From positions 162,008,001-162,072,000 of the forward strand of contig NC_086097.1 in assembly GCF_963921235.1 (NCBI RefSeq): a stretch of DNA of 64,000 nt, read 5' to 3'. A program made the position numbers and the translations under genes. The stretch comes from Mobula hypostoma (lineage: Eukaryota). The first letter of the stretch is position 1, and each line of letters opens with the position of its first letter. The notes below the pieces were generated by a model. The model saw only the letters and a list, made by a program, of their open reading frames with translations, was not told the origin of the DNA and ran no database searches. This document shows, in pieces, positions 6,969-55,242 of this stretch.

Positions 6969-7880
6969 TGTTACGTACCCCGTAACTGGGTTGCCAAACC
7001 AGCAGAAATGGATCACTCAGTTGGAGTCTGGACTACTGGAACTAAGAACGTTTTATTAAAGAAATAAGCAACACAGTACTCTAATCAAAAGGATAATAAA
7101 TGCAACAGTTCAGCAATGATAAACACACATGTACACAGAATTAGGATAACAGGATCAATCAAGCTCTATCGTCATCTAGGGGTAAATGACCATTTTCAAA
7201 GTGACGCAAAGTTCAATTCAATGGAGTTCAGTTCAGTTCACAGTAATCACTGCCATGGCGGTGGACGGGGGGGGGAGGAGAGAGAGAGCAAAAGCGAATG
7301 AATATTCAAAACGGCTTCCACACAGACCTTCGATATTCCTCGCAGTCAGCTTTCGGGCGAGCCCTTTGTAATGTCTTCTGAGGTCACCGACTGTGACCCC
7401 TCCGTTTCAGATACGATCGTTCCTCAGCGGTGAACCCGGCACCCAGGCAAGGGCGGACACACACCCGTTCCTGCCGATCGTACCTTTCCACCCTGTGCGT
7501 CTCTGGCTTGGTCCCGCGACCAGCCCTCCAAAGACTCCCACCGACTTGTGGGAGGCGCACTGCTTCCAGGGTCTCGTTACCTCGTGGTGTCGTGTGTGTC
7601 CTGCCTTAGCGAACCTGTCCCTTTTTATCCCCCTGCTGGGGTATCGCCTGTCCATCACACTTCAAACAGTTCCAGGTTCAAAAAGGAACCGATCTTGACA
7701 GCTCTCAGACCGTGTCTCCTTCCGTTAAACTCTCCCGTCTCTTCATTAACATTTCCAAATGCTGCTCCATTGTCTTACTTATCTCTCTCCCTCCTGAAGA
7801 CAGGTGGCAGATCAACTGTTGATCCCACTGGTGATAGCACAGGACAGTCAATATCTTAGTCTATGTGTACTTTCGTCTCA
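6969..7880 (-). mobile_element. Solo LTR (Gypsy-like) inserted in L1 ORF2
   Basis: TG...CA termini (TGTTACG...CGTCTCA), 4-bp TSD ATAA (6965-6968 / 7881-7884); L1 ORF2 resumes after it. AATAAA (~7051-7057) and a TATA-like GATAAAA (~7622) read on the minus strand. Confidence 0.85.
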
Positions 7881-10291
7881 ATAAGAAGCGAGTAGAACTT
7901 CAAACTAAGTTTGACCTCATCTCCACTCAGCCAGTTGAACGCCAAGAATAAGAGTCAATTTTATATTCATGGTGATAAGTCAGGTAAGATTTTAGTTAAC
8001 CAACTAAGACACTCTAAAGCTAAACAACAAATTACAAAAATTTGTATGGGAAATAGGAACATTCTCGACTTTATACCTCTGAATCTTCAAATGATATTAT
8101 CACTGTTGAGCATTTTCTAAATAATTTAAATATTCCTTCACTTTCCTCCGACTTTAAAGCAAAACTCAATGAACCATTATCATTAGAGGAAATATCATCT
8201 GCCATCTCTGCATTACAGTCAGGTAAATCTCCTGGACCTGATGGCTTTTCTGCAGAATTTTATAAATCATTTTCTTCACTGCTTTCGTCTCAATTATTTG
8301 TGGTTGTATCTGATTGTTTAAGCATGGTAAATTGCCTGCATCATTTAACGAGGCATGTAACATTCTTTTAGCCAAAAAAGGTAAAGATCCAACAGTGTTC
8401 TTCGTATAGGCCGACTGCTTTGTTAAATGTCAATGTTAAAATTTCGGCTAAAGTTTTGGCTCGTAGATTAAAGAACATTATACCTTCTATTAATTCTGAA
8501 GATCAAACTGGTTGTATTAAAAATCACCTTCCCTTTTTTAATATACGACGCTTATTTAATATCTTATATTCACCCTCAATTGGGACTCCTGAATGTGTTA
8601 TTTCTCTTGATACAGAGAAAGCGTTTGATCGCGTTGAGTGGAATTACCTTTTTGCGGTTTTAGAAAAATTTGATTTTGGACGAAGTTTTAGTACATGGAT
8701 TAAATTGCTATATTCATATCCCACCGCTTCTGTTTTGACCAACTCTCAGCAATCTCAGTCTTTCAGCCTTAAGCGCGGCACTCGTCAAGGTTGCCCTTTA
8801 AGTCCCTTACTCTTCGATTTGGCTATAGAGCCACTTGCCATTGCGTTTCGTAGCTGTGCTGAATTGATGGGGATTTGGAAGGGAGGTGATGAGCATAAAT
8901 TTTCCCTTTATGCTGACGATCTTTTACTTTTTATATCAAACCCGACTACTTCCTTACCCCCCCCCGATGTTTTCTCTTCCTAATAAATTTAGTCAGCTTT
9001 CCAGTTATAAACGTAATTTACATAAGAGCGACTCTTTCCAATTAATAGAGAAGCACAAGCTTTAGTATTCCATGACCTTCCTTTTACGGTAGTTAACAAT
9101 CAATTCACTTACCTTGGTATTACAGTAACAAGGAACTTCCAGAATCTTTCGAGAAAATTTTACCAATCTTCTAAACTCTACAATACAGGATTTGACACAA
9201 TTGTCACCCTTGTCTATGTCTCTTGTAGGTTGAATTAATGTTATTAAAATGTATATCCTTCCTAAATTTTTGTATCTATTTCAGTCTTAACAAATTTTTA
9301 TTTCTAAAACTTTTTTTGATGCGTTAGATTCTATTATTTCGTCCTACCTATGGAAAGGTAGACTTAATAAAGCTCACCTTCAAAAATCTAAAAAAGTAAG
9401 GTGGTATGGCCTTGCCTAATTTTTGTTTATATTTTTGGGCAGCCAATATTCGTTGTCTTACTTTTTGGTCTTTCTTCCATAATCAGTCTGACTGCCCTAA
9501 GTGGGTGGCAGTGGAGTTCAATCTTTCCATTTCTGCACTTCTCAGATCCGCACTTCCTTGTCATTTGCCTAGATTAATTGTCAATCCTCTAATTCAACTT
9601 ACTCTGAGAATATGGGCTCAGTTCAGAAAATTTAATGGTCTTCATGGTTTTTCTCTCTCTAGCCCTATTTTACACAATCATTTTTTCCCACCTATACGGG
9701 ATTCAACCTTTATGATTGGTATAGAAAAGGTATTAGGCACTTTGAAGGATCTTTTTATAGATAATCGTTTTGCAACTTTTCAACACCTGTCTGTAAAATT
9801 TAATCTACCAAATAATGATTTCTTTAGATATCTTCAAATTAGACATTTCATTAACCCTTTAATATCAAACTTCCCTGAGATGCCTGAGAAAAATGTTCTG
9901 GACCTGTTTCTTTGTATAAGTCCATTGGGTAAAGGTTTAATATCTGTTACTTAGGATAAGTTAGTGATTTTTGAGGCGTGCCCCCTTCGATAAAATTAGA
10001 ACTGCCTGGGAACATAACCTAAATATTTCCTTATCTGATGCGGTTTGCGATTCAATTCTTAAGTCAGTCAACTCAACCTCTCTATGTGCTCGCCACTGCC
10101 TCTTGCAGTTTAAGGTTGTACACAGTGCTTATATGTCTAAAACTAAATTATCGCAGTTTTACCCTGACATTAGTCCTGTTTGTGACAAGTGTAAAGGGGG
10201 TGAGGCTTCTCTTATCCACATGTACTGGGCCTGTCCTAATCTAGAGAAATTCTGGAGAGAAGTTTTTTCAACCTTATCTCATATTCTTAAT

Positions 10292-11869
10292 CCATCACGT
10301 CCTTCTCCTGCATTGCCTGCAGGACAATACGTGCCGACCACTGCCTGATGGCCCTGTGGTCAAAGGCGTTCTCCTGGAAGAACTTTGCTACGTAGGACAG
10401 GTATGCCGGCAACGATCAGCTGACTGGGGCGTTGCGCGGGAGTGGGGCCAGACCCATCCTTTGTAGCCAGGGTGACAAGTAGAACCTGGGCACATAGTGG
10501 TACTTGGTGCCCACATACCTGGGTTCTACACACAACCTGATGCAGCCACATACAAAGCTGGCCATCAGGGTGAGGGCGACATTGGGTACATTCTTGCCCC
10601 CGTTGTCCAGGGACTTGTGCACGACGGTCCGTCTCACCTGCTCCATCTTGGATCCCCAGACGAATCTGAAGCCAGCTCGGGTGATTTCCGAGCTGTAGGA
10701 GTGGGGGACGGACCAGACCTGTGCCAAGTACAGCAGCCCTGAGAGCACCTCACACCTGATGACCAGGTTCTTGGCCATTATCGACAGGGAGCGCCCTCCC
10801 CACAGTCCCAGTTTCTGTTTCACCTTGGCAGTCCGCTCCTGCCAGTTCTTGTTGCGTGCCTCAGCCCCTCCGAATCAGGTCCCCAACACCCTCACGTGGT
10901 CAGACCTGACGGTGAAGGGGACGCTGGATCGGTCGGGCCAGTTGCCGAAGAGCATGGCTTTGCTCTTCGCGCGGTTGACCCTGGCCCCCGACGCTAGCTC
11001 GAACTGTTCGCAGATGCCAATCAACCTGCGAACTGACCTCGGATCAGAGCAGAAGAGATGGTGACGTCGTCCATGTACAGGGAGGTTTTCACTTGGGTCC
11101 CTCCACACACAGTGGGGTGGTTCCCTGAGCAGACCGTCCAGTTCATCTGGCAAAATGCCTCATCGCCAGATCTCACCAACAGGCACCAAGACCTCACCTG
11201 GCTGGCGGTGAGAGGGGCCCTCCCAGTCAGAGCCCTCGTGTACACCCGGAATGTCGTCTCCGCACCCCACTGCCCACAGGAGGACTGCAGTGAGGAGGAG
11301 TCTGTGACCCACCTCTTCGCACACTGTCAGTTCGCAAAGAGGGTGTGGAGGAGGATGGACGGGCTAGTGTCACATTTCATCCCCAGCAGCTGCGTAACAG
11401 AGGACTCTCTGATCTACGGGCTGTTCCCGGGGACGCACACGGAGACCAACATCGGTGCTGCTGGCAGATCATCAACTCGGTGAAAGACGCTCTTTGGTTG
11501 GCCCGAAACTTGATGATCTACCAGCACATGGAGATGTCCGTGGGAGAATGCTGCCGACTGGCCCATTCTCGGCTGCAGGAGTACGTGCTGAGGGACGCAC
11601 TGAAACTCAGTGCACCCACCGCAAGGGCCCGGTGGGGAAGGACCACAGTATAGGTTTCTCCACCCGTGGGAGTGGGAGGGGTCGGGGGGGCGGGGAGTAT
11701 ACCCCTCAACAATGATATGCTAAGCTGAACTACTGGAGTGCCACGTGGGTGGCAATAAATACGGATGTGTACTGACTATAATGGAAACGTATGTAAAGGA
11801 TGGAAAGTTATTGAGTGGTTTATTGTATATATTTATTTTTGAATAAAGTATATTTTGAAATTTAAAAAA
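10292..11869 (+). mobile_element. Tx1-like (L1 group) LINE 3' portion with inverted 5' segment
   Basis: Perfect 16-bp TSD ATCTCATATTCTTAAT (10276-10291 / 11870-11885). RT C-terminus (KTSLYMDDVT) lies on the minus strand at 10292-~11104; the Cys/His motif CPQEDC...HLFAHC, AATAAA and A tail lie on the plus strand at ~11107-11869. GC-rich relative to the host L1. Confidence 0.9.
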
Positions 11870-13746: not shown

Positions 13747-13864
13747 CCTTTGACCATAACAACTCCATCGTTGAACATTGCAGAAAACATGGCAGACTTG
13801 ATAGATGGTTATTGCCGCCTTGTGAATGGAGTTGTGCAGTCATTCATTATCAGGTCCCAGAAAG
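13747..13864 (+). CDS. PTK2: Focal adhesion kinase exon (end of FERM domain), PLTITTPSLNIAENMADLIDGYCRLVNGVVQSFIIRSQK
   Basis: ttattttcag acceptor, AAAG|gtagat donor, 118 nt; contains the FAK/PYK2 hallmark AENMADLIDGYCRL; in frame with the preceding exon. Confidence 0.97.
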
Positions 13865-19674: not shown

Positions 19675-19705
19675 AAGGAGAGCGTGCCTTGCCTTCCTTA
19701 CCGAA
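19675..19705 (+). CDS. PTK2: Focal adhesion kinase 31-nt exon, (E)GERALPSLP(K), linker proline motif
   Basis: tttgtttccacag acceptor, CGAA|gtaagt donor; phases fit both neighbours; matches FAK EGERALPSIPK. Confidence 0.95.
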
Positions 19706-21089
19706 GTAAGTAAGCATTAGAGCTTCAAATAATTTGCAGTGTTATCTGAATTAATAATTTGTTGGCTTGATCCATTTTACTGAAAGAATATTTCTCTGCA
19801 TGATAGTGTTTAAAGTAACTTGAAGTACAATTACTGAAATTCTGGTAGAAATGAATCTGGTTGTAAAGGTATGGAAGTATATCAGGTTCCCAGGTTTCCC
19901 AGTGGTTCTCATACCTAGTGGTAAGTAAGGGCAGTAAAGAAAAAAAATAGAATATGCATTAGCATAGTGGTTTTTCATACCCTTCGTACACTCTAAAGCA
20001 ATTCACAGCCAATTAATTGCAATTAAAGTGGTCATAATTAGCCTGTAAAAAGTTAAGAGTGGGAGAAAGATGGAAGATCCTTTTTTAATTCCTCAACAAA
20101 AGTTGCCAATTTTTCATTCAGCTCCGAAAAGCAACAGCTAGAGTGATTGACTCATACTAACTGAGTTAGGCTGCGACGAATGGAACCACAACCATTCACT
20201 CATGAAATGCCCCTTACAGAAGGCAAAGCTGAGGGTAGAATTTTGTCCCTTGTTAAATTAGACATTGATTTTATCATTAAGTTGATACCTCATACATTCA
20301 GGTGCTATTAAGATTGAAGTATTTTAAATATGTTTGAACAAACACCAATTGAAAATATTAAAAGTAAACCGAATCATTACTAAACAAAGAATCTTTGCAT
20401 TGTTTCCAAAACCTCTGCTTTACAACATCATTGAAATCAAAACTTTTCTCTGAAATTGAACTATATCTGACCTGGTTCCTAAACTGAGAGGTGATTAACC
20501 AGTATAATGCTGGGAAATATTGCAGATGTATTTAGCTCCCCACAGAAAATCATAACTTTCAATCTTTTGGGCAGAAATTTACAAGATTCACTAGCCTCTG
20601 AGTGAAAGAACTCGTATCAAAATTATCATGATTATTTTTATCATATACAGCAATTAGCTTTTTGCAGAGGAAGCACAGTATATTACAAGATTACAACAAA
20701 CAAAATAAATTACAAAAATTATACATGTGCAAAATAAATGAAATAAACGTAACGACACTGGTACAAGATTGAGGGAGAGGAAGAGAGAAAAAAATAGTCT
20801 TGGGGAGTGCTAGGTTTTATGGGTTGATGGTATTACAGTTCCACAGTTATTACAGTTATAGTGGGCTGTGAACCATTGGGGTAATTTCGCCAGTGTACAA
20901 TATTGGCTCAACATTGGTTGGTAACTGTATCTACTTTCTGGAGTTTAGAAGCATGGAGGATATGTCATTGAAATACCAAAGGCGTCTGATTGAACAAATG
21001 TTTACAAGCTTGCTTGAAGAATATAAAATGAGGAAGGACAACCTGAGGAGAAGTTTCCCATTGCAACAACCCATAAAATTAATGTTTGT

Positions 21090-21183
21090 AACACACATAA
21101 AAGTTGCTGGTGAACTCAGCAGGCCAGGCAGCATCTCTAGGAAGAGGTGCAGTCGACGTTTCAGGCCGAGACCCTTTGTCAGG
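21090..21183 (-). mobile_element. 94-bp Penelope-like terminal fragment containing the hammerhead motif
   Basis: 13-bp TSD AATTAATGTTTGT (21077-21089 / 21184-21196); sequence matches the element terminus seen at 29360-29456. Confidence 0.85.
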
Positions 21184-21279
21184 AATTAATGTTTGTCCTC
21201 ATCTTGTATTGTACTTTGCTCCTGCTGCAAAAAGCTAATTTCTATGGCAGCTATACCCTGTGAATATATGCCTATGATA

Positions 21280-22625
21280 ACCGTAAGATACTGGAACAGA
21301 ATTAGGCCATTCCACCCATCAAATCTGTTATCCCTCTCAACCCCATTCTTTCTGCCCCTTCTGTTATGTTTGACACCCTGACTACTCAGGAAATTATCAA
21401 ACTCTACTTTAAATATAGTATACTCAAGAATTTGGCCTCCACATCTTTCTGTCGCAGTGAATTCCACAAATTCACTACACTCTGGCTAAATCAATTCCTC
21501 CTCAGCTCTGTTCTAAATGATAGTCCTTCTATTCTGAGGCTGTACCCTCTAGTCCTAAACTTGCCTGTTATAGGAAACATCCACCCAACAACCACTCATT
21601 CCAGACTTTTCAATGTTTGATAGCTTTCAATGAGAAGTCTTATTCTTCTAAACTCCCATGAGTACAAGTCCAGAGCTATCAAACAATACTCGTATGTTTA
21701 TCTATTCATTCCTGGAATCATTATCGTGAACCTTCTCTGCATTCTTTCAATGCCAGCACATCTTTTCTTAGATAAGGGGCCTAAAACTGCTTACAATACT
21801 CCAAGTGTGATCTGACCAATGCCTTATAAAGCCTCCTCATTACATACTTGCCCTTATATTCCAGTCCTCTAGATTGAATGCTAACGTTGCATTTGCCTTT
21901 CTTACCACCAACTAAACCTACAAATTAACCTTTCGCGAATCCTGCACAAGACTCCCTTCATACCTCTGATTCATGAATTTTCTCCCTGTTTAGAACATAG
22001 TTCTCATCTTTATTCCTTCCACCGAAGTGCATGACCATACACTTCCCTACACTATATTCTATCTGACATTTCTTTGCCCATTCTCTCAATCTGTCCCTTT
22101 GCGGACTCACTGTTTCCTCAGCACTACTTGCCCCTCCACCTATCTTTGTACCATCCAAAAACCTGGCTAGAAAGCCATCAATTCCTTCATCCAAGTCATT
22201 TATGTATAACTTGAAAAGAAGTGGTCCCAACACTGATCCCTGCAGAACACCACTAGTCACCGGCAGCCAACCAGAATAGGCCTCCTTTATTCCCACTATT
22301 TGCCCCCTGCCAGTCTGCCAATCTTTGATCCATGCAAGCATCCTTCCTATATTACATGGGCTCTTATCTTTTGTGCATCTTGTCGAAAGCCTGTTATTTC
22401 CTCAAAGAATTCCAATAGTTTTGACAGCAAGATTTCCCTTTAAGGAAACCAAGATGACTTTGGCCTATTTTATTATATACCACCAGGTATCCCACAAGAC
22501 TTCATCCTTAATAATTGACTCCATCTACACAACCACTAAAGTCAGGCTAACTGACCTACAATTTCCTTTCTTCTGCCTACCTCCCTTCTTAAATAGTGGA
22601 GTGATACTTGCAATTTTCCAGTCAT
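21280..22625 (-). mobile_element. CR1 LINE RT 3' portion, degenerate
   Basis: ORF 21958-22341: [19 protein letters not shown]...YINDLD; CR1-type 3' UTR near 21290. Confidence 0.85.
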
Positions 22626-23174
22626 TATTTAAACAATAAACAACAATATTATTGTAAATCAATAAACTTGATAATTTGATAAAGGAGTTCTTTCTCTAAG
22701 AGGTTAGTGAATTTTGGAATTCCTTTTTCTTCTACTCAGTCATTGTACTGCCTGGCTTCCTGTTTGCACTGTTTCATGTAGGGGAGCATACATATAATAA
22801 TTAAATTGTTTTCTGTTATTCCTGCAGAATTATTACACTTTTACCCGCACTTTATTTAATGACCACTCTCATAACATGTTTGTTCCTCCTTATTACATTT
22901 TTGCAACCAGCTCTTTGATTTTTTTCTAACTTCACGTTGAATCATTGAAAGTCTTGGATATGTTAAAGTAGGTACAGTCACCTTAAATCGTGAAGAAAAT
23001 TGTAATCAACTGAGATGCAAGCAATGATTCATGTTTCTTCCGATTAACTTTATCCTTATTGCATGAAAATGACCTGCTTATTCTTTTATTCTGTTTTTTT
23101 TTAAGTTCATCAATTCTTGATTCATGCTGATATATTCCTTTCAACCCATAAATGTAAGAAAAAATCTGTTCTTA

Positions 23175-23640
23175 TAAAGGGTCAATGACTGATGGGTTGT
23201 AACATTTCCTCCTCACTGACAATTAAAACGGGCACATCTCAAGGATGCATGCTTAGTTCACTGCTCTACTCTCTCTACAGACATTACTATGGGGCTATGC
23301 ACAGCTCAAATGCTATCTATAAGTTCACCAATGATACCACTGTTAGTAAAATCTCAGATGGCAGTGTATGAGTGAGATAGCTGGTTCAGTGGTATCACAA
23401 CAGCAATCGCTGACTTAATGTCAACAAGATTAAGGATTTGATTGTTGACTTCAAGAAGTGGAAGTCGGGAGAATACACTCCTGTCCTCGTTAGAGGGTGA
23501 GCAGCTACAAGTTCCTGCATGTCAGCATCTTGGAGGGTCTATCCGAGGCCCTTTGACACAATTGTGAGTTAGGCACATCAGTGGCTCTACATCATTCAGA
23601 GTTTAAGCAGGTTTGGTATATCACCGAAAGTTCTGTAGAT
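23175..23640 (+). mobile_element. Rex1/Babar LINE fragment, old
   Basis: Recognisable nucleotide similarity to 16400-16740 and 17610-17700. Confidence 0.65.
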
Positions 23641-23644
23641 TTAG

Positions 23645-24905
23645 ACCATAAGACTTAGGAGCAAAAATAGGCCATTCAGCCTATCATATCTGCTTCACCA
23701 TTCTATCATGGGTGATCCCGGATCCCACTCAACCCCATACACCTGCCCTCTTGCCATATCCTTTGGTGCCCTGACCGATCAGGAAACCATCTACTTCTGT
23801 CTTAAATGTACCCACGGACTAGGCCTCCACCACAGTCTGTGGTGGACCATTCCACAGCTTCACAACTGTCTGGCTAAAAATGTTCTAGAAGGTTACCCCT
23901 CAATTTTGAGGCTGTGCATTCTAGTTCTGGATACCCCCACCAGAGGAAACATCCTCTCTACGTCCACCCTATCTAGACCTTTCATCATTTGGTAGGTTTC
24001 AATGAGATCCGCCCCCGCCCCCCCGCACTCTTCTAAATTCCAATCAGTACTCTATACTTTATTGTCGCCAAACAATTGATACTAGAACGTACAATCATCA
24101 AAGCGATATTTGATTCTGTGCTTCCCACTCCCTGGATTACAAATCAATAGTAAATATTAAAAATTTAAATTATAAATCATAAATAGAAAAATGGAAAGTA
24201 GGGTAGTGCAAAAAAACCGAGATGGAGGTCCGGATATTTGGAGGGTACGGCCCAGATCCAGGTCCAAGGCTGCAAAACGCTCCTCATATGTTAACCCCTT
24301 CATTCCCAGAATCATCCTTGTGAACCTCCTCTGGACTCTCTCCAATGACAACACATGCTTTCTGAGCCCAAAGCTATTGATGATACTCTTAAGTATGGCC
24401 TGACTAGTGTCTTATAAAGGTTCAGCATTATCTCCTTGCTTTTATATTCTATTCCCCTTGACATAAATCCCAAACATTGCATTTGCCTACTTTACCACAG
24501 ATTCAACCTGTAAGTGAATCTTTTAGGAGTCTTGCATGAGGACTCCTAAGTCACTCTGCACCTCTGATGTTTGAAGCTACTCCCCATTTAGATAATAATC
24601 TGCACTATTGTTCCTTTTACCGAAATGTATTATCATACATTTCCCAGCACTGTATTCCTGCTGCAATTGTATTACTTCTAAAGTACTACCTATCCCTCCA
24701 CATATCTTTGTATCCTCTGCAAACTTTGCCACAAAGCCATCAATTCCATTATCGAAATCATTAACAAACAATGTGTAAAGTAGCAGTCCCGATGCTGAAG
24801 AACACCACTAGTCACCGGCAGCCAACCAGAAAAGGCCCTTTTATTCCCAGTCGCTGCCTCCTACCTGTCAGCCATTCCACTATTCATGACAGTATCTTTC
24901 CTGTA
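23645..24905 (-). mobile_element. CR1 LINE RT 3' portion
   Basis: ORFs GIDGFVAKFAEDTK (24577-24771) and LERVQRRFTRMI (24157-24354); CR1 3' UTR at ~23645-23720. Confidence 0.85.
24051..24259 (-). mobile_element. Short LINE 3'-end fragment inserted in CR1
   Basis: CR1 sequence ...CAATCAGTAC | AGGTCCAAGGC is interrupted by 209 bp with a minus-strand AATAAA and AGTAT-like tail; family unknown. Confidence 0.55.
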
Positions 24906-25296
24906 AGCATAGTTCAGGAGGGTTTAAACTAATTTGCAAGGGGGATGGGACCCGGAGCGATAGAGCAGTGAAAGAAGTGCATGGAGTAGAGAGTCTTTGA
25001 GGAAAGAGAAGCAGAATAAATGGTGTAAAGGTAGTAAGGTAGGAGGGCTGAATTGTGTGTACTCAATGCAAGAAGCATCAGAAACAAAGGTGATGAACTG
25101 AAAGCTTGGATACATACGTGGAATTATGATGTAGTGGCCATTACACAGACTTGGCTGGCACCAGGGCAGGAATGGATTCTCAATATTCCTGGATTTCAGT
25201 GCTTTAAAAGGAATGGGGGGGGGGAGGGGAGGAGGGGTGGCAATACTGGTCAGGGATACTACTACAGCTACAGAAAAGGTGGGTAATGTAGCAGGA

Positions 25297-25575
25297 AACA
25301 ACAGGAATTCTGCAGATGCTGGAAATTCAAGCAACACACATAATAGTTGCTGGTGAACGCAGCAGGCCAGGCAGCATCTCTAGGAAGAGGTGCAGTTGAC
25401 GTTTCAGGCCGAGACCCTTCGTCAGGACTAACTGAAGGAAGAGTGAGTAAGGGATTTGAAAGTTGGAGGGGGAGGGGGAGATCCAAATTGATAGGAGAAG
25501 ACAGGAGGGGGAGGGATGGAGCCAAGAGCTGGACAGGTGATAGGCAAAAGGGATACGAGAGGATCATGGGACAGG
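25297..25575 (-). mobile_element. Penelope-like element terminal repeat (single arm) with hammerhead motif at 25394-25429
   Basis: Near-identical to 27667-27945; interrupts the CR1 endonuclease region; only CAGGA microhomology at the junctions. Confidence 0.85.
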
Positions 25576-28094
25576 AGGATCCTCTTTTGAGTCAGTATGG
25601 GTGGAAGTCAGGAACAGGAAGGGAGCAGTTGCTCTATTGGAGGTATTCTATAGGCCCCCTGGGAGCAGCAGAGATACAGAGGAGCAGATTGGGAGGCAGA
25701 TTTTGGAAAGGTGCAAAAATAACAGGGTTGTTATTATGGGTGACTTTAACTTCCCCAATATTGATTGGCACCTGATTAGTTCCAAGGGTTTAGATAAGGC
25801 AGAGTTTGTTAAGTGTGTCCAGGATGGATTCCTGTCACAGTGTGTGGACAGGCTGACAGGGGGAATGCCATACTAGATCTAGTACTAGGTAATGAACTGG
25901 GTCAGGTCACAGATCTCTCAGTGGGTGAGCATCTGGGGGACAGTGACCACCGCTCCCTGGCCTAGCATTATCATGGAAAAGGATAGAATCAGAGAGGACA
26001 GGAAAATTTTTAATTGGGGAAGGGCAAATTATGAGGCTATAAGGCTACAACTTGCGGGTGTGAATTGGGATGGTATTTTTGCAGGGAAATGTACTATGGA
26101 CATGTGGTTGATGTTTAGAGATCTCTTGCAGGATGTTAGGGATAAATTTGTCCCGGTGAGGAAGATAAAGATGGTAGGGTGAAGGAACCATGGGTGACAA
26201 GTCAGGTGGAAAATCTAGTCAGGTTGGAAGAAGGCAGCGTACATGAGGTTTAGGAAGCAAGGATCAGATGGGTCTATTGAGGAATATAGGGAGCAAGAAA
26301 GGAGCTTAAGAAGGGGCTGAGAAGAGTAAGAAGGGGGCATGAGAAGGCCCTGGCGAGTAGGGTAAAGGAAAACCCCAAGGCATTCTTCAATTATGTGAAG
26401 AAAAAAAGGATGACAGGAGTGAAGGTAGGACTGATTAGAGATAAAGGTGGGAAGATGTGCCTGGAGGCTGTGGAAGTGAGCGAGGTCCTTGATGAATACT
26501 TCTCTTCGGTATTCACCAATGAGAGGGAACTTGATGATGGTGAGGACAATATGAGTGAGGTTGATGTTCTGGAGCCTGTAGATGTTAAGGGAGAGGAGGT
26601 GTTGGAGTTGCTAAAATACATTAGGACGGATAAGTCCCCAGGGCCTGACGGAATATTCCCCAGGCTGCTCCACGAGGCGAGGGAAGAGATTGCTGAGCCT
26701 CTGGCTAGGATCTTTATGTCCTTGTTGTCCACGGGAATGGTACCGGAGGATTGGAGGGAGGCGAATGTTGTTCCCTTGTTCAAAAAAGGTAGTAGGGATA
26801 GTCCGGGTAATTATAGACCAGTGAGCCTTACGTCTGTGGTGGGAAAGCTGTTGGAAAAGATTCTTAGAGATAGGATCTATGGGCATTTATAGAATCATAG
26901 TCTGATCAGGAACAGTCAGCAAGGCTTTGTGAAAGGCAGATCGTGTCTAACAAGCCTGATAGAGTTCTTTGCGGAGGTGACTTGGCATATAGATGAGGGT
27001 AATGCGGTGGATGTGATCTATATGGATTTTAGTAAGGCATTTGACAAGATTCCACAAGGTAGGCTTATTCAGAAAGTCAGAAGGCATGGGATCCAGGGAA
27101 ATTTGGCCAGGTGGATTCAGACTTGGCGTGCCTGCAGAAGGCAGAGGGTGGTGGTGGAGGGAGTACATTCAGATTGGAGGATTGTGACTAGTGGTGTCCC
27201 ACAAGGATCTGTTCTGGGACCTCTACTTTTCGTGATTTTTATTAACGACCTGGATATGGGGGTAGAAGGGTGGGTTGGCAAGTTTGCAGACGACACAAAG
27301 GTTGGTGGTGTAGTAGATAGTGTAGAGGATTGTCGAAGATTGCAGAGAGACATTGATAGGATGCAGAAGTGGGCTGAGAAGTGGCAGGTGGAGTTCAACC
27401 CAGAGAAGTGTGAAGTGGTACACTTTGGAAGGACAAACTCCAAGGCAGAGTACAAAGTAAATGGCAGGATACTTGGTATTGTGGAGGAGCAGAGGGATCT
27501 GGGAGTACATGTCCACAAATCCATGAAAGTTGCCTCACAGGTGGATAGGGTAGTTAAGAAAGCTTATGGGGTGATAGCTTTCATAAGTCGAGGGTTAGAG
27601 TATAAGAGTCGTGATGTAATGATGCAGCTCTATAAAACTCTGGTTAGGCCACACTTGAAGTACTGTAAACAACAGGAATTCTGCAGATGCTGGAAATTCA
27701 AGCAACACACATCAAAGTTGCTGGTGAACACAGCAGGCCAAGCAGCATCTGTAGGAAGAGGTGCAGTCGACGTTTCAGGCCGAGACCCTTGTCAGGACTA
27801 ACTGAAGGAAGAGTGAGTAAGGGATTTGAAAGTTGGAGGGGGAGGGGGAGATCCAAAATGATAGGAGAAGACAGGAGGGGGAGGGATAGAGCCAAGAGCT
27901 GGACAGGTGATAGGCAAAAGGGGATACGAGAGGATCATGGGACAGGAGGTCCGGGAAGAAAGACAGTGGGGGGCGGGGGGGACCCAGAGGATGGGCAAGA
28001 GGTATATTCAGAGGGACAGAGGGAGAAAAAGGAGAGTGAGAGAAAGTGTGCATAAAAATAAGTAACAGATGGAGTATGAGGGGGAGGTGGGGCC

Positions 28095-28917
28095 TTAGCG
28101 GAAGTTAGAGAAGTCGATGTTCATGCCATCAGGTTGGAGGCTACCCAGACGGAATATAGGGTGTTGTTCCTCCAACGTGAGTGTGGCTTCATCTTTACAG
28201 TAGAGGAGGCCGTGGATAGACATGTCAGAATGGGAATGGGATGTGGAATTAAAATGTGTGGCCACTGGGAGATCCTGCTTTCTCTGGCGGACAGAGCGTA
28301 GATGTTCAGCAAAGCGGTCTCCCAGTCTGCGTCGGGTCTCGCCAATATATAAAAGGCCACATCGGGAGCACCAGACGCAGTATATCACCCCAGTCGACTC
28401 ACAGGTGAAGTGTTGCCTCACCTGGAAGGACTGTTTGGGGCCCTGAATGGTGGTAAGGGAGGAAGTGTAAGGGCATGTGTAGCACTTGTTCCGCTTACAC
28501 GGATAAGTGCCAGGAGGGAGATCAGTGGGGAGGGATGGGGGGGACGAATGGACAAGGGAGTTGTGTAGGGAGCGATCCCTGCGGAATGCAGAGAGAGGTG
28601 GAGAGGGAAAGATGTGCTTAGTGGTGGGATCCCGTAAGAGGTGGCGGAAGTTACGGAGAATAATATGTTGGACCCGGAGGCTGATGGGGTGGTAGGTGAG
28701 GACCAGGGGAACCCTATTCCTAGTGGGGTGGTGGGAGGATGGAGTGAGAGCAGATGTACGTGAAATGGGGGAGATGCGTTTAAGAGCAGAGTTGATAGTG
28801 GAGGAAGGGAAGCCCCTTTCTTTAAAAAAGGAAGACATCTCCCTCGTCCTAGAATGAAAAGCCTCATCCTGAGAGCAGATGCGGCGGAGACGGAGGAATT
28901 GCGAGAAGGGGATGGCG
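28095..28917 (-). pseudogene. C-terminal part of Penelope-like ORF: Cys-rich linker + GIY-YIG endonuclease (5'-truncated)
   Basis: ORF 28095-28838: PCKRNKCYTC linker, GVIYCVWCSRCGLLYIGETRRRLGDRFAEH, HFN...H, GMN; no RT core retained. Confidence 0.9.
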
Positions 28918-29359
28918 TTTTAATTCCACATCCCAGTTCCATTCTGACATGTCTATCCACGGCCTCCTCTACTGTAAAGATGAAGCCACACTCAGGTTGG
29001 AGGAACAACACCTTATATTCCGTCTGGGTAGCCTCCAACCTGATGGCATGAACATCGACTTCTCTAACTTCCGCTAAGGCCCCACCTCCCCCTCATACCC
29101 CATCTGTTACTTATTTTTATGCACACATTCTTTCACTCACTCTCCTTTTTCTCCCTCTGTCCCTCTGAATATACCTCTTGCCCATCCTCTGGGTCCCCCC
29201 CCCTTTGTGTTTCTTCCCGGACCTCCTGTCCCATGATCCTCTTGTATCCCCTTTTGCCTATCACCTGTCCATCTCTTGGCTCTATCCCTCCCCCTCCTGT
29301 CTTCTCCTATCATTTTGGATCTCCAACTTTCAAATCCCTTACTCACTCTTCCTTCAGTT

Positions 29360-29395
29360 AGTCCTGACGAAGGGTCTCGGCCTGAAACGTCGACT
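29360..29395 (+). ncRNA. Minimal type-I hammerhead ribozyme (intact copy)
   Basis: AGTC-CTGACGA-AGGGTCTCGGCCT-GAAA-C-GTC-GACT: stem I AGTC/GACT, core CUGANGA, stem-loop II, GAAA, palindromic ACGU in place of stem III, predicted cleavage after GUC (C29391). Confidence 0.85.
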
Positions 29396-29830
29396 GCACC
29401 TCTTCCTACAGATGCTGCTTGGCCTGCTGCGTTCACCAGCAACTTTGATGTGTGTTACTTGAAGTACTGTGTCCAGTTCAGGTCGCCTCACTATAGGAAG
29501 GATGTGGAAGCATTGGAAAGGGTACAGAGAATATTAACCAGGATGCTGCCTGGTTTAGAGAGTATAGATTATGATCAGAAATTAAGGGAGCTAGGGCTTT
29601 ACTCTTTGGAGAGAAGGAGGATGAGAGGAGACATGATAGAGGTGTACAAGATATTAAGAGGAATAGATAGAGTGGACAGCCAGCGCCTCTTCCCCAGGGC
29701 ACCGCTGCTCAATACAAGAGGACATGGCTTTAAGGTAAGTGGTGGTAAATTCAAGGGGGATATTAGAGGAAGGTTTTTTACTCAGAGAGTGGTTGGTGCA
29801 TGGAATGCACTGCCTGAGTCATTGGTGACT

Positions 29831-31185
29831 TATCTAACTTGATGCTTTGCAAAAGCTCCAGCACATCCTCTTTCTTAATATCTACATGTTCAAGCTTTTT
29901 AGTCTGCTGTAAGTCATCCCTACAGTCGCCAAGATCCTTTCCTGTAGTGAATACTGAAGCAAAGTACTTATTAAGTACCTCTGCTGTCTCCTCTGGTTCC
30001 ATACACACTCTTCCACTGTCACACTTGATTGGTCCTATTCTTTCACATCCTATTCTCTTGTTCTTCACATATTTGTAGAATGCCTTAGGGTTTCCTTAAT
30101 CCTGTCCACCAAAGCCTTCTCATGGCCCCTTCTGGCTCTCCTAATTTCTTTCTGAAAGCTCCTTCCTGCTAGCCTCATAATCTTCTAGATTCCTATCATT
30201 ACCTAGTTCTTTGAACCTTTCATAAGCTTTTCTTCTTGACTAGATTTGTACACCACGGTTCCTGTACCCTACCATCCTTTCCCTGTCTCATTGGAACGTA
30301 CCTATGCAGAACTCCACACAAATATCCCCTGAGCATTTGCCACATTTCTTCCGTACATTTCCCTGAGAACATCTGTTCCCAATTTATGCTTCCAAGTTCC
30401 TGTCCAATGGCCTCATATTTCCCCTTACTCCAATTAAATGCTTTCCTAACTTGTCTGTTCCTATCCCTCTCTAATGCTGTGGTAAAGGAAATAGAATTGT
30501 GATCATTTTCTCCAAAATGCTCTCCCATTGAGAGATCTGACACCTAACCCGGTTCATTTCCCAAATCCAGATCAAGTACAGCCTCTCCTCTTGTAGGCTT
30601 ATCTACATAGTGTCAAGAAACCTTCCTGAACACACCTAACAAACTCCACCCCATCTAAACCCCTTGCTGTAGGGACATGCCAATCCATATTCGGGAAATT
30701 AAAATCTCCCACCACGAAACCCTGTTATTATTACACCTTTCCTGAATCTGTCTCCCTATCTGCTCCTCGATGTCCCTGTTACTATTAGGTGATCTATAAA
30801 AAACACCGATTGAAGTTATCGACCCCTTCCTGTTCCTAACTTCCGCCCACAGAGACTCAGTAGACAATCCCTCCATGTCTTCCTCCTTTTCTGCAGCCGT
30901 GACACTACCTCTGATCAACAGTGTCAAGCCATCGCCTCTTTTGCCTCCCTTCCTGTCCTGGCTGAGACATCTGAAGCCTGGAACTCAAAGTAACCATTCC
31001 TACCCCTAAGCCATCCAAGTCTCTATAATGGCCACGACATCATAGCTCTAATTATTGATCCACGCTCTAAGCTAATCGGCTTTGATCATAATACTCCTGC
31101 ATTAAAATAGACACATTTCAAACCATCGGTCTGAGCGCATCCCTTCTCTATCACCTGCCTATCCTCCCTCTCACACTGTCTCGCA
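29831..31185 (-). mobile_element. CR1 LINE endonuclease/linker portion
   Basis: ORFs EVRNRKG...FYRSPN, GEHFGENDHNSI and LNKYFASVFT...KLDKSP on the minus strand. Confidence 0.88.
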
Positions 31186-31620
31186 TTAACTCTGTATCGA
31201 CAGCAGGAAATCATATTGTAAAAAACTCCTGGAGTATAACTGGAGTGTATATTCCAAGTCTGCTTAACTGTCTTCGTGCAACGAACCCACCATCCCAGAA
31301 ATCAATCAGGTGGACCTTTGCGGCATTCATTTTATGTACATCCTTCTTTGGGCTGGGAAATTAAAATAAGCATACTCCTTCTGACTTGGTCTTATCAGTT
31401 TTCATTTATTCCGTACAGTCCAAGCTGGAAATCACAGTCTTGGCAATGTTTCTCAGTGACCTCTGTGGCTTTTCTAGTGCTTTCACATCCTTCTGTTATG
31501 TGATAACCCTTTACTTTGCTCTTCACTTTTTTTATCAGATCTTTGTCCATCTTTCATAAAGAAAATTTGACTGTGTCAGTGCTTCTGCTGCTTCAAAACA
31601 TCCACCATTGTTCCTGTAGC

Positions 31621-32445
31621 TGTATAACAACTGACGTCCTGTCACACTCACCTCAATAATAAGCAAATGCTTTGAGAGGCTGGTCAAGGACTACATCTGC
31701 AGCATGCTACCACCCACATTGGACCCCCTACAACAGGGGTCCCCAACCTTCTCTGCACCGCGGACCGGTTTAATATTGTCAATATTCTTGTGGACTGGCC
31801 GACAGAGGGGGTGGTGGGGGTGCAGGTGGTGTTAGTCAACAGTGGGCATGACAGGGAATGAGCAAAGGTGCAGCTGACTCATATCATTTCATATCGCCAA
31901 ATCATATCATTTCCCCGTGGCCTGGTAGCACATGCTTTGTGACCCGGTGGTTGGGGACCACTGTCCTACAATTTGCCTACCGACACAATCGAGTGAAGGA
32001 TAATGCAATAACCACAGCTCTACACACTGTCCTTACACACCTGGAGAAGAAGAATTCTTATGTGTGAATGCTGTTCTTTGACTACTGTTCAGCGTTCAAC
32101 ACCATAATTCCATCCAGGCTTAACAAGAAGCTCAGAAACCTCAGCCTTCACCCTGTCTTGTGCAGCTGGATCCTGGACTTCCTGTTAGATCGCCGAGAGA
32201 ATGGGCTCCCTCACCTCTGCCCCTCTGACCCTCAACACAGGAACTCCTCAAAGCTGTGTCCTAAGCTCCTTCCTTTCCTCTCTGTACACCCCTGACTGCA
32301 TTGCCATCCACAGCTCCAATCTGCTAATTAAAGTTGCTGACGATACTATATTGATTGGCCTTATCTCAAATAATAATGAGGCACCCTACAGAGAAGTCAT
32401 TACCCTGACACCGTGGTGTCAAGTAAACAACCTCTCCTTCAATGT
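31621..32445 (+). mobile_element. Rex1/Babar LINE RT fragment, split by a MITE
   Basis: LDPLQFAYR, FDYCSAFNTIIP, TGTPQSCVLS and KVADDT motifs. Confidence 0.8.
31734..31963. mobile_element. 230-bp hAT (Charlie-like) MITE
   Basis: TIRs CAGGGGTCCCCAACC / GGTTGGGGACCACTG; 8-bp TSD CCCTACAA / TCCTACAA. Confidence 0.85.
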
Positions 32446-32489
32446 TGCTTTGGCTCTCATTTTTTTGCTTTCAATTGCTTTTTCTCTTT

Positions 32490-33534
32490 AGAACCACAGA
32501 ACATCACAACACAGAAACAGGCCTTTTGGCCTTTCTTGGCTGTGCCAAACCATTTTACTGCCTAGTCCATACACCTCTTATCCATGTACCTGTCCAAGCT
32601 TTTCTTAAATGTTAAAAGTAAGCCTGCATTTACCACTTCATTTGGCAGCTCATTCCACACTCCCACTATCCTCTCCATGAAGAAGTCGCCCCCCCAATGT
32701 TCCCTTTAAACTTTCCCCCCTTCACCCCAACCCATGTCCTCTGGTTTTTCTTCTCCCCTAGCCTCAGTGGAAAAAGCCTGCTTGCATTCACTCTATCTAT
32801 ATCCATCGTAATTTTATATACCTCTGTCAAATCTCCCCTCATTCTTCTATGTTCCAGGGAATAAAGTCCTAACCTATTCATCCTTTCTCTGTAACTCAGT
32901 TTCTCATGTCCCGGCAACATCCTTGTAAACCTTCTCTGCACTCTTTCAACCTTATTAATATCCTTCCTGTAATTTGGTGACCAAAACTGTACACAATACT
33001 CCAAATTCAGCCTCACCAATGCCTTATACAACCTCACCATAACATTCCAACACTTATACTCAATACTTTGCATCTGTATTCCCAGAGCCCTCTGTTCTAC
33101 TGCACTCCTCAGTGCCCTACCATTTAACTTCTCTGTTCTACCTTGGTTTGTTCTTCCAAAGTGCAATAGCTCATACTTATCTGTATTAAACTCCATCTGC
33201 CATTTTTCAGTCCATTTTTCCAGCTGGTCCAAATCCCTCTGCAAGCTTTGAAAACCTTCCTCATTGTCTGCTACACCTCCAATCTTTGTATCATCAGCAA
33301 ATTTGCTGATTCAATTTGCCACATTATCATCCAGATCATTGATATAGATCATGAATAACAATGGACCCAGCACTGATCCCTGTGGCACACCACTAGTCAC
33401 AGGCCTCCACTCAGAGAAGCAATCCTCCGCTACCACTCTCTGGCTTCTCCCATTGAGCCAATGTCTAATCCAATTTACTACCTCTCCATGTATACCGAGC
33501 GAATGAATTTTCCTAACTAACCTCCCATGCGGGA
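32490..33534 (-). mobile_element. CR1 LINE RT 3' portion
   Basis: ORFs 33311-33598 ([11 protein letters not shown]) and 32666-33244 (LEYCVQFWSP...ERVQRRFTRM); TAGAAC-type tail at ~32490. Confidence 0.88.
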
Positions 33535-34280
33535 GTTTAAATAGTTTGACATGACCTCCCATGTCAACCATTTCTACATGATTTGACACTGAATTCAAGT
33601 ATAGCTTTTATCTTGCGATTCTTCAATCTGATTTTTTAATGAAAAGAAACTTTTTTGCCTATTAATTATTCTGGATGTCCAGTTTTCTTTGCTGATATTT
33701 TTATTCAGCTTATATTTACTTCATTAGATACCACTGATGCCAGCTATCTTGATATAGTGTATACTCCTGCAGAAAGTAAGATTTTCTCTCACTGCTGTAC
33801 CCATTTCACTTATTGCTGTAAAGCAAACGTGTAAGCCCGACTGTGTTACCATGAAAATATTTAAATGCTTGTCTTCCCCTGTTTTTTGCTTGCTTTAGAA
33901 ATTTAAATTCTATAAGCAAATGGCTTTCAGAAAACAGAATACAGTGTATTGGCCTGAGTTAATATGGTTGGGTGTTTGTCGTAAATGTATGTATTATGTT
34001 TTAAAACCAGACTTAAGAGCACAACCAACAACTCCATGTTCAGTTACAACAACTATATTGAATTCCTGTGTATACAGTGATGGAAATCATGTGTTTGCCA
34101 TGGTACACCCTTCTGACTTTAAAGTGGTAGCTCCCATTTATAGCAAGTTCCCTCCCCCTGAAAGGGAATGGTCGAATCCTGTGCAATTATTGTAAATAAC
34201 CCCTAGGTATGCGGAATGAACTCATTGCAGAGATTGCTGAAAATGCATAATATTGATCATTTTACACATTCATTTTTCAG

Positions 34281-34333
34281 GTTGTCAAATAGTGAAAAGC
34301 AGGGATTGAGGACTCGAGCTGTCTCAGTCTCAG
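34281..34333 (+). CDS. PTK2: Focal adhesion kinase 53-nt exon, LSNSEKQGLRTRAVSVS
   Basis: catttttcag acceptor, CAG|gtaaga donor; phase 2 to phase 1; matches FAK LANSEKQGMRTHAVSVS. Confidence 0.95.
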
Positions 34334-42659: not shown

Positions 42660-43845
42660 ACATTTTTTACATGCCCTTACCTACTGCACCACAAGCTTCC
42701 ACATCCAGCATGTCATTCTCTGTAACCTCCACCATTTTCAACTGGATCCTACCACGAAAACTTTCCCCACCCCACACTTTCCATTTTCCATGGGGATCAC
42801 TTTTTCCCTTGTCCATTCATCGCTCCCCAAAGATCTTCCTCCTGGCACTTATCCCTACATCTTCTGCCTGCCCATTCATCTCCTCCGTAACCACCATTTA
42901 GGGTCCAAACAGTCCTTCCAGGTGAGACACACTTCACTGCAAGTCTGTTGGGGTCATCTAGTGTATTTGGTATTCACGGTACGGCCTTCTCTGCATCAGT
43001 GAGACCTGACATAAGTTGGGGGAGCGCTTTGTCAAGCACCTTTGCTCAGTCTGTAACAGGAACAACCATTTTAATTCCATTCCTCAGTCATTCTAACATG
43101 TCTGTCCATGGCATAATGAAGCCACTCTCAGCTTGGAGAAGCAACACCTCATATTCTGTCTGGGTAGTCTCCAACCTTACAGAATGAACATTAATTTCTC
43201 TAACTTCTAGTCATTTTTTCACCTCCCCCCATCTTTCTTTTTCCATTTCCCATTCTGGCACCCCTGTTACTGCTTCTCTTCTCTTCTCACCTGCCTATCA
43301 TCTCCTTCTGATGGCTTCTCCTCTGTCCCTTTCTCACATGGTCCACTCTCCTTCTCCTGTCAGATTCCGCCTCCTTCAATCCTTTACTTTTTCCACCTTA
43401 CACGTCCCAGCCAAGTGGACAAGGGAGTCACACAGAGAGAAAACACTGTAGAAAGCAGATGCTGGGGGGGAGGTAGCGATGTGTTTAGTGATAGGATCCC
43501 ATTGAAGATGGGGAAAGTTGCAGAGAATGAGGTCACTCTCAGATCGGAGGAGCAATAAATCATATTCTCTCTAGCTGACCATCAAACTGGCAGCATGGAC
43601 ATGGATTTTACTGCCCTTTACCCTTTCCACTTCAGCCCTTTACCTTTCCCACTTACCTTCAGCTCTTTACCTTTCCCACTTATTCAGCTTCTCGCTTCAT
43701 CCTCCTTCCATCTATCAACTGCCAGATAAATGTCCTTGCCCAGAAACGTCAACTCTTCATAGATGAAGCCTGACCTGCTGAGTTCCTCCTACATCTTGTG
43801 TATGTTACTCTGGCTTTGCAGCATCTGCAGAATCTCTTGTGTTTA
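42660..43845 (+). mobile_element. Older, rearranged Penelope-like element
   Basis: Degenerate linker/GIY-YIG (GSKQSFQVR). Short inverted piece at ~43411-43530, about three copies of CCTTTACCTTTCCCACTT at ~43613-43682, terminus CATCTGCAGAATCTCTTGTGTTT. Confidence 0.75.
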
Positions 43846-45398: not shown

Positions 45399-46995
45399 CT
45401 GGTCAAAATTTCTTTTACTGTGAATAGCTAAGCAAGTAAAAGATGACCTGATTTCCAAAAGGCATAAAGTTAAAGATGATGCATTTCTTTAATATTTTAA
45501 GCAAGATTACTTTTTTATTTCCATCTTTTACAGTTTCAAAAGAACAAAAAAGGAGAAGGGCCCAAAGCAAAAGTTTGGGCACCCTGCATGGTCAGTATTT
45601 AGTAACACCCCCTTTGGCAAGTATCACAGCTTGTAAATGCTTTCTGTAGCCAGCTAAGAGTCTTTTAATTCTTGTTTGGGGGATTTTCGCCTATTCTTCC
45701 TTGCAAAACACTTCTAGTTCTGTGAGATTCTTGAGCTGTCTTGCATGCACTGCTCTTTCGAGGTCTATTGACAGATTTTCGATGATGTTTAGGTCGGGGG
45801 ACTGTGAGGGCCATGGCAAAACCTTCAGCTTGAGCCTCTTGAGGTAGTCCACTGTGGATTTTGAGGTGTGTTTAGGATCATTATCCTGTTGTAGAAGCCA
45901 TCCTCTTTTCATCTTCGGCTTTTTTACAGATGGTGTGATGTTTGCTTCCAGAATTTGCTGGTATTTAATTGAATTCATTCTTACCTCTACCAGTGAAATG
46001 TTCCCCGTGCCACTGGCTGCAACACAAGCCCAAAGCATGATCGATCCAACCCTGTGCTTAACAGTTGGAGAGGGGTTCTTTTCTTGAAATTCTGCACCCT
46101 TTTTGCTCCAAACATACCTTTGTTCATTGTGGCCAAAAAGCTCTATTTTAACTTCATCAGTCCACAGGACTTGTTTCCAAAATGCATCAGGCTTGTTTAG
46201 ATGTTCCTTTACAAACTTCTGACGCTGAATTTTGTGGTGAGGACACAGGAAAGGTTTCCTTCTGATGACTCTTCCATGAAGGTCATATTTGTGCAGGTGT
46301 CATTGCACAGTAGAACAATGCACCACCACTCCAGAGTCTGCTAAATCTTCCTGATGGTCTTTTGCAGTCAAACGGGAGTTTTGATTTGCCTTTCTAGCAA
46401 TCCTATGAGCAGTTCTCTCGGAAGGCTTTCTTGGTCTTCCAGACCTCAACTTGACCATCACCATTCCTGTTATCTGCCATTTGTTAATTACATTAGGAAC
46501 TGAGGAAACGGCTACCTGAAAACGCTTTGTTATCTTCTTGTGCCTTCTCCTGCTTTGTGGGCATCATTTATTTCAATTTTCAGAGTGCTAGGCAGCTGCT
46601 TAGAGGAGCACATGGCTGCTGATTGTTGGGACAAGGTTTGAGGAGTCAGGGTATTTAGGAAGCTTTGAAATTTGCATCACCTGGCCTTTCCTAGCAATGA
46701 CTGTGAAGAAGCCATAGTCCTATCAAGTTAATTAAGGTCTGAGACCTTGGTAAAAGTTATCTGAGAACTCAAATCTCTTGGGGTGTCCAAACTTTTGCAT
46801 GGTGCTCCTTTCGTTTTTTTCACTCTAAAATTGTACAAAACAAAAATAATACACTATTTTTCTTGCTTAAAATCTTGAAACAAATGTTTCATCTTTAACT
46901 TTATGACTTTTGGAGATCAGTTCATCTTCTACTCACTTAACTATTCACAGTAACAGAAATTTTGACCGGGGTGCCCAAACTTTTGCATGCCACTG
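45399..46995 (-). mobile_element. Tc1-family transposon (same family as 1-1200), degenerate transposase ~46613-45591
   Basis: ORF 45691-46038 QQDNDPKH...[12 protein letters not shown]. End ...GCATGCCACTG|TA at 46995; the other end lacks the outermost ~28 bp. Confidence 0.93.
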
Positions 46996-54325: not shown

Positions 54326-54417
54326 ACTTGGGGTGGGTTGTTGCATTCTTAGAAAATGTAATGCAAGAACCCACCCCCAGAATGCCTGCAGAAATAAATT
54401 AAATATTGCCTGCCACA

Positions 54418-55226: not shown

Positions 55227-55242
55227 AAAACTTGATATGTGT

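Follow-up and report, generated by a model that had tools for sequence, protein, structure and literature searches.

An intact minimal hammerhead in a head-to-head copy of an abundant Penelope-like element within a PTK2 intron of Mobula hypostoma, where it is likely inert

A 36-nt sequence in an intron of a kinase gene of Mobula hypostoma resembles a self-cleaving hammerhead ribozyme. Does it belong to a mobile element, and would it cut the pre-mRNA of the gene in which it resides? The window, i.e. the whole stretch of DNA that was analyzed, comprises 64,000 nucleotides (positions 162,008,001 to 162,072,000 of contig NC_086097.1, forward strand; RefSeq assembly GCF_963921235.1). The original prediction, made from the letters of the window, placed the motif in the terminal repeat of a Neptune-type Penelope element with about ten copies in PTK2 introns, and proposed that the intact copy could cleave intron RNA by pairing with a second one. 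The reading that we favor, with a probability of about 0.8, is that a young and abundant Penelope-like element (PLE) is the source of the motif, a minimal hammerhead in intact form, and that it sits in a truncated head-to-head copy which is likely inert in PTK2.

The motif, its insertion and its host gene

The motif at 29360–29395 (+ strand) reads exactly as had been described, with all core bases, stems I and II, and ACGU in place of stem III. The core segment C3–A9 occupies 29364–29370 (C3 at 29364), A29371 is bulged directly after A9 and before stem II, and stem II joins 29372–29375 with 29380–29383 (G.U, G-C, G-C, U.G) below a 4-base loop. G12–A15.1 correspond to 29384–29387 and C17 to 29391; according to the hammerhead numbering, the predicted cut falls between C29391 and G29392. 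Stem I is open and consists of four Watson-Crick pairs and one G.U pair. Stem III is absent, as C15.2 and G16.2 abut without a loop, and the palindrome A15.1–U16.1 at 29387–29390 (+) would form this stem in a dimer. The motif thus shows the order CUGANGA, GAAA, UH, the stem I of 4–5 bp and the stem II with a bulged base that characterize PLE minimal hammerheads. The minimal hammerheads described for metazoan PLEs, including Xena, Poseidon and Neptune of fishes, have the same core, the short stem I, the bulge before stem II, the 15.1–16.1 palindrome and no stem III, and they, too, are present in both pLTRs as well as dispersed as single copies or as copies on opposite strands (PMC4209133). In contrast, stem II has 4 bp and is closed by G.U at 29360, while 7–8 bp closed by G-C are reported in that account. 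A descriptor for minimal hammerheads, a check that had been proposed together with the prediction, matched the window only once, at 29360, and found no match in any of 100 first-order Markov controls. Rfam models at gathering thresholds left the motif unmatched.

The G.U pair at 10.1–11.1, which closes stem II, results from U at position 11.1, where a G-C pair is usual. This form prevails in the young subfamily: the exact 34-mer of the motif occurs 36,060 times genome-wide (reversed control pattern, 0), as compared to 6,478 copies of the C11.1 variant. Decay of a CpG site in the 29360 copy alone was considered as the origin of U11.1 and rejected, because ORF-bearing copies have the same form.

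Four short exons on the + strand of the window resemble focal adhesion kinase. The exon at 13747–13864 encodes 39 residues at the end of the FERM domain (FAK1, E 3e-16; PTK2B, E 1e-5), and the exons at 19675–19705 and 34281–34333 (both +) delimit the host intron of the motif (19706–34280). The coding exons of PTK2 extend from approximately 65 kb before the window to approximately 178 kb beyond its end, all on the + strand, which places the motif on the sense strand of a PTK2 intron as proposed. In run X1, the exon that ends at 34333 is connected to the following exon by one contig, indicating that PTK2 is spliced in this run.

The motif lies in the right arm of a single head-to-head insertion (27667–29456). 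The right arm (28918–29456, +) contains the end of an endonuclease frame, the 3' UTR and the hammerhead, and has no tail. The left arm (27667–28919, −) contains a 274-aa GIY-YIG frame (28919–28095; Pfam profile match, E 3e-4), the 3' UTR, a hammerhead without G8 (27799–27765, −) and a tail of about 33 nt (27667–27700). Both arms are 93.8% identical across 563 nt, and a 14-bp target-site duplication (27653–27666 and 29457–29470) borders the insertion. The insertion interrupts a LINE at 26290–29842 (+), with the RT frame to its left and the continuation to its right; this LINE matches Pfam RVT_1 only, and we take it to be of CR1 type from the look of its frame. Animal non-LTR retrozymes carry the same type-I hammerhead of PLE origin, but they are non-coding tandem units (10.64898/2026.07.22.740005), whereas the unit at 29360 is a fragment of a coding element, with its 274-aa endonuclease frame, and is inverted.

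Homologues were found at all ten further positions for which related copies had been predicted (near 21151, 25394, 27765, 54513, 54548, 55091, 59369, 60067, 61284 and 62558), six of them antisense to PTK2. The count of about ten is nevertheless too high for independent events as well as for intact ribozymes, as the window contains 11 arms of eight insertions, among them five inverted pairs, and only one arm is intact. Every other copy has a lesion in the core or stem I or is decayed: G8 is missing at 27765 and replaced by A at 21151 and 61284, G12 is replaced by A at 60067 and 62558, A9 by C at 59369, G1.1 by A at 25394 and A6 by G at 54513, while the copies at 54548 and 55091 are decayed. The 21151 copy is a 99-nt solo insertion that begins at the 5' edge of the hammerhead (21088–21186, −; 11-bp duplication), and the 25394 copy is a solo insertion with a tail (25296–25578, −). 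An old inverted insertion (42675–43845) includes a further, older homologue that had not been listed, a decayed hammerhead arm at 43722–43844 (+). The 54513 and 54548 copies form a short inverted pair that turns at the 5' edge of the hammerhead (54417–54640; 14-bp duplication with one mismatch), and the 55091 copy is an old solo insertion with a tail and a broken stem I (54973–55227, +). The two remaining inverted pairs both have the tail on the right arm; they contain the 59369 and 60067 copies (59302–60202; 10-bp duplication) and the 61284 and 62558 copies (61218–62692; 14-bp duplication), respectively.

Other repeats in the window include two Tc1/mariner-type copies in opposite orientation (1–1173 and 45399–46571; 91.5% identical), the second with a DDE_3 frame at 45691–46299. 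RVT_1 matches were obtained in a fragmented LINE at 5214–10348 and in an RT frame at 53116–53952, which are presumably L1-like and RTE-like, respectively, judging from the look of their frames.

The element family and the conservation of its ribozyme

Among 20 loci selected for a long frame, two (L011 and L012) are partial tandems that carry the motif on both sides, 3,513–3,514 nt apart, with a 1,043-aa frame between the two identical motifs; no direct upstream copy is present in the remaining 18. In both of their pLTRs, L011 and L012 have a motif identical to that at 29360, which bears out the predicted location of the latter in the pLTR of an abundant Penelope-like element. The 1,043-aa protein contains DKG and YIDD motifs and matches RVT_1 and GIY-YIG with E-values of 3e-5 and 5e-4, respectively, which fall short of the curated Pfam cut-offs. 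A single ORF with RT and, at its C-terminus, a GIY-YIG domain, direct or inverted pLTRs, a one-sided tail and a target duplication agree with the organization of EN+ PLEs. The best named homologue among the 120 listed is from a bamboo shark (71%).

A CX2-5CxxC linker between RT and endonuclease is reported for Neptune and Nematis and as absent from Penelope and Poseidon (PMC8557442). The protein of the element (P0001) has such a linker, CX4CxxC, at residue 910, and it is present in 99 of 102 proteins with a recognizable endonuclease motif. The predicted Neptune type therefore stands as far as a linker of the Neptune/Nematis type is concerned; as the linker is common to both clades, assignment to Neptune is likely but provisional. 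The 43 target duplications described below are mostly AT-rich and none is a (TA)n run; for Neptune, a (TA)n target bias is reported as a tendency and not as a strict rule.

The family is very abundant. Sixty 10-kb stretches, sampled systematically, yielded 94 matches (reversed sequence, 0), which extrapolates to approximately 545,000 arms in the genome of 3.48 Gb. The endonuclease frame had 141 scored matches, of which 140 besides itself were 97–98% identical. The at least 36,060 identical motifs compare with about 4,000 hammerheads reported for the coelacanth and about 9,000 for Xenopus, although the counting methods differ (PMC4209133).

Among 53 young and 66 old copies alike, the core, the stems and the palindrome are kept as the majority bases, whereas the flanks at −12 to −5 and +33 to +45 (C3 = 0) differ between young and old copies. 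Changes in the ribozyme within the genome cluster at CpG sites in these copies. The segment at +46 to +61 (29409–29425 in the window, and homologues) is as well conserved between young and old copies as the core. Hence, conservation is not unique to the ribozyme, and this segment is a candidate protein-binding or priming signal.

Related families provided a second view. In 80 metagenome loci, the descriptor found 25 matches in 22 loci, 24 of them on the coding strand, while ten Markov control sets gave one match in all. All 25 matches, several of which are duplicates, are palindromic at 15.1–16.1, with five palindrome sequences among them, although the descriptor did not require a palindrome, and this result in related families is the best independent support for a ribozyme of the dimer type. 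Stem sequences differ across the families yet pair, although pairing was demanded by the descriptor. In a distant family of invertebrate type (L283), an inverted hammerhead pair (at 1087 and 3582) likewise flanks the ORF.

The ribozyme in PTK2 pre-mRNA

In the PTK2 sense direction, the left arm is transcribed ahead of the right arm. When the region 27600–29520 was folded with ViennaRNA, 527 of 540 right-arm nucleotides paired with the left arm, and the probabilities of the hammerhead stems were close to zero in the fold of the whole insertion. The isolated 38-mer favored an inactive hairpin (−11.0 versus −7.0 kcal/mol), in which G5–G8 pair with C15.2–C17 and thus the core with the cut site, and the active swapped dimer (−11.5 kcal/mol) scored far worse than an inactive duplex (−30.3 kcal/mol; ViennaRNA). 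The folding model therefore does not itself support the active dimer, and the active fold would need help from a protein because the inactive hairpin and duplex score better. Monomers of PLE minimal hammerheads are reported as inactive and dimers as weakly active (PMC4209133). These predictions describe an equilibrium and ignore proteins and ADAR editing, either of which could open the duplex.

Given its predicted pairing with the mirror arm, the 29360 ribozyme is likely inert in PTK2 pre-mRNA, and cleavage of this RNA is unlikely. The proposal that the ribozyme cuts the intron by means of a second copy was thus not upheld: the motif is sequestered by the left arm in the predicted fold, and the window contains no second intact sense copy. 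The PTK2 coding span contains five sense copies that are intact, and all of them have an antisense arm 0.06–1.7 kb upstream.

Could the sense copy instead cut PTK2 pre-mRNA in trans with RNAs of other elements, and in this way tune PTK2 like the CPEB3 ribozyme? The CPEB3 ribozyme, too, is a motif of the self-cleaving kind in sense orientation within a vertebrate intron, and it demonstrates that an intronic ribozyme can affect its gene (PMC10919898). The intact core on the sense strand, the tens of thousands of intact genomic copies as possible partners, and the good coverage of the family by contigs of runs presumed to be RNA would agree with such a role. However, the CPEB3 ribozyme is HDV-like, has a half-life of 2–3 min and a measured effect on its gene (PMC10919898), while the 29360 motif, a young copy of a repeat, depends on a partner, and its own upstream arm is predicted to sequester it. 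A role like that of CPEB3 would require folding and cutting in the pre-mRNA, but the prediction at 29360 is sequestration by the inverted arm, and no local partner is available; the closest intact sense copies are found in other introns, at distances of 80 and 92 kb. Family matches in the PTK2 span show no strand bias (29 sense and 29 antisense, n = 58), although one gene offers low power and about half of the arms lie in pairs that are balanced by construction. Moreover, the insertion is young and its sequence exists in 36,000 copies, and slow intronic hammerhead cuts are reported to spare splicing, unlike those of a faster ribozyme (as reported in PMC2995048). We thus regard regulation of PTK2 by cutting in trans as highly improbable. 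One published observation counts against an inert passenger: a preprint reports that retrozymes are under-represented in Xenopus introns (10.64898/2026.07.22.740005).

In two inverted pairs, one in the PTK2 region (133596–133881 in window numbering) and one at L038 (8427–9747), both arms share a substitution that is absent from most copies. This suggests a single source transcript or later homogenization.

The insertion might also act on PTK2 through other features, either as a substrate for ADAR editing in its 560-bp duplex or through a cryptic acceptor at 29357 that exonizes the ribozyme. The 93.8% identity of the inverted repeat would suit the former. As to the latter, an acceptor-like signal (branch-like heptamer, pyrimidine tract and AG; 29340–29357, +) lies directly upstream of stem I, and the intron of Penelope in D. 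virilis is reported to end at helix I (PMC4209133). In old subfamilies, the acceptor-like AG itself belongs to stem I, and splicing there would therefore alter the ribozyme, as has been reported for Penelope of D. virilis. The acceptor is, however, buried in the predicted duplex. Among six joints examined in contig sets presumed to be RNA, no GT..AG joint led into the acceptor-like site, and none lay within the element among 15 shown of 65 joints from four such sets, which weighs weakly against its use. The four sets gave no usable ends, and contigs, which do not reveal RNA ends, have no bearing on cleavage. Taken together, an effect on PTK2 by either route appears very unlikely. The sister copies L036 and L065 show the heptamer, in perfect form, the pyrimidine tract and AG immediately before stem I. 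A conserved acceptor before the ribozyme was not evident by eye upstream of the 25 matches in related families.

Copy ends and the role of the hammerhead

Young arms (at least 88% identity to L012 and covering the 3' segment) were used to assess how copies of the family integrate. In all 48 adjacent inverted pairs, exactly one arm has a tail (25 left, 23 right). A duplication of at least 8 bp was found in 43 of 47 pairs, and 29 of these 43 measure 13–14 bp. The 3' ends fall into two classes, one near +129 and the other spread across +74 to +103, and microhomology with the target is slightly longer at the tail-less end (1.8 versus 1.1 nt; 33 pairs, p = 0.009). Head-to-head arms with a target duplication and a one-sided tail of 30–40 bp are known from published inverted-pLTR insertions (PMC8557442, PMC3846280, PMC2377424); the count of 48 of 48 tails, the 13–14-bp duplications and the distribution of 5' ends described next go beyond these accounts.

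The 5' ends accumulate at −19 to 0, the front edge of the hammerhead, where 49 of 143 arms reaching C3 terminate (1.7% per base, versus 0.14% at −139 to −40). The proportion differed among the sets: 39/99 in loci picked by pattern, 8/22 in the systematic sample and 2/22 around PTK2 (p = 0.007). In contrast, only 3 of 190 arms end at the cut site (+26 to +30). Genome-wide junction patterns gave 3.7% at −3 (1,339 of approximately 36,060) and no more than 0.55% (498 of 90,373) at the cut site, with controls of 0.14% at +31 and 0.16% at +20; for these two controls the denominators were estimated, and a stricter pattern was applied at +20. Copies that begin at the cut site were considered as fossils of cleavage in vivo, but much of this signal is microhomology or mutation. 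Thirty-nine of the first 100 listed cut-site junctions have upstream triplets explained, by eye, by microhomology with the element. Among 20 others, three are intact copies in which a base was lost or changed, 11 are joined to an inverted arm, and six abut an unrelated flank, where the junction offers no credible target duplication. An approximately twofold excess at the cut site may remain, and the use of some cut RNA is possible given the difference from the controls. Most templates would be uncut, however, because 5' ends are rare at the cut site and many at the front edge; most of the copied RNA was thus likely uncut, judging from copy ends.

PAc, a Poseidon element of Anolis carolinensis, offers a parallel. 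Its cleavage is reported to occur only with protein, it transposes in vitro uncleaved, uncut RNA is its main substrate, and RNA-seq ends are absent at its cleavage site (PMC11167929). As in the family studied here, the hammerhead lies near the pLTR–ORF junction, targets are AT-rich and two classes of 3' ends define the tail (PMC11167929). The elements differ in the first ATG, which lies about 140 nt past the cut site here and inside the ribozyme in PAc (PMC11167929), and in the CX4CxxC linker, which is present here and absent from Poseidon (PMC8557442).

A tail-ORF junction was found in 30 of 378 copies, 20 of which reach C3. Sixteen of these 20 copies bearing an ORF start extend past the front edge of the ribozyme, mostly into an upstream ORF, which fits circles formed by cutting and ligation but fits tandem read-through as well. 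Only one of 14 copies running at least 880 nt into the ORF stops at −19 to 0, as compared to three of six primed just inside the ORF (Fisher p = 0.06; binomial versus pooled rate p = 0.02; the split was made post hoc). This leans towards the start of the RNA as the end point of short copies and, for long tandems, towards a template that is circular or arises by read-through; alternatively, enzymes that have copied 3 kb may be more processive. The pile-up itself could reflect either an RNA start at the front edge or a stop of the enzyme there. Ten of the 30 copies (L091, L092, L097–L099, L101, L112, L114, L119 and L120) reach beyond the tail by only 80–312 nt of the ORF start, as though priming had occurred at a more internal site in the 5' part of the RNA. 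The tail-ORF junction is repeated three times at 310-bp spacing at G000:C2:157816721-157817372 and twice at 262-bp spacing at G000:C2:122542760-122543053, which suggests short tandem or rolling-circle copies.

The scarcity of ends at the cut site also bears on whether the hammerhead of the family is a vestige that no longer cuts, with its G.U pair at 10.1–11.1 and a locked monomer, and is kept as a promoter or protein-binding part. U11.1 in the youngest subfamily, the pairing of G5–G8 with C15.2–C17 in the monomer fold and the transposition of PAc in vitro without cleavage (PMC11167929) would be compatible with this view. Yet core, stems and palindrome have been retained in young and old copies while the flanks diverged, the G.U pair also occurs in the related loci L298 and L311, and most copies with an ORF start read past the front edge. 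A vestige is therefore unlikely.

We infer the following cycle for the element. The endonuclease would make a 13–14-nt staggered cut at the target, and element RNA would be reverse-transcribed from both target ends, with priming at the tail end in one case and about 35 nt inside it in the other. Folding of the ribozyme would require a dimer formed via the ACGU palindrome, likely with help from the protein of the element, and cutting after C17 would be slow, as deduced from published homologues. We tentatively consider, as a rather doubtful extension, that the hammerhead serves mainly as a handle or boundary, with RNAs that start at its front edge, pair via ACGU in a dimeric protein complex and prime differently on each side. 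If true, this would yield the one-tail rule of all 48 pairs and the pile-up of ends at −19 to 0, and the circles serving as templates for long partial tandems (13 of 14 pass the front edge) would stem from rare events of cutting and ligation.

The ribozyme class and its location in the pLTR, the inverted arms and the one-sided tail are published (PMC4209133; PMC8557442; PMC3846280; PMC2377424; review PMC6765202). Our literature survey, which covered titles and abstract openings and included few subscription papers, yielded nothing on this family or on a pile-up of 5' ends at the front edge. The motif is thus a textbook feature of PLEs, and its intronic copy in PTK2 is probably harmless. The family, in turn, is a natural data set in which tens of thousands of near-identical copies record PLE integration, with a 13–14-nt staggered cut, two priming sites that are apparently unequal, and an end of copying that lies at the front edge and not at the cut site. 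This record bears on what the hammerheads of Penelope elements do.
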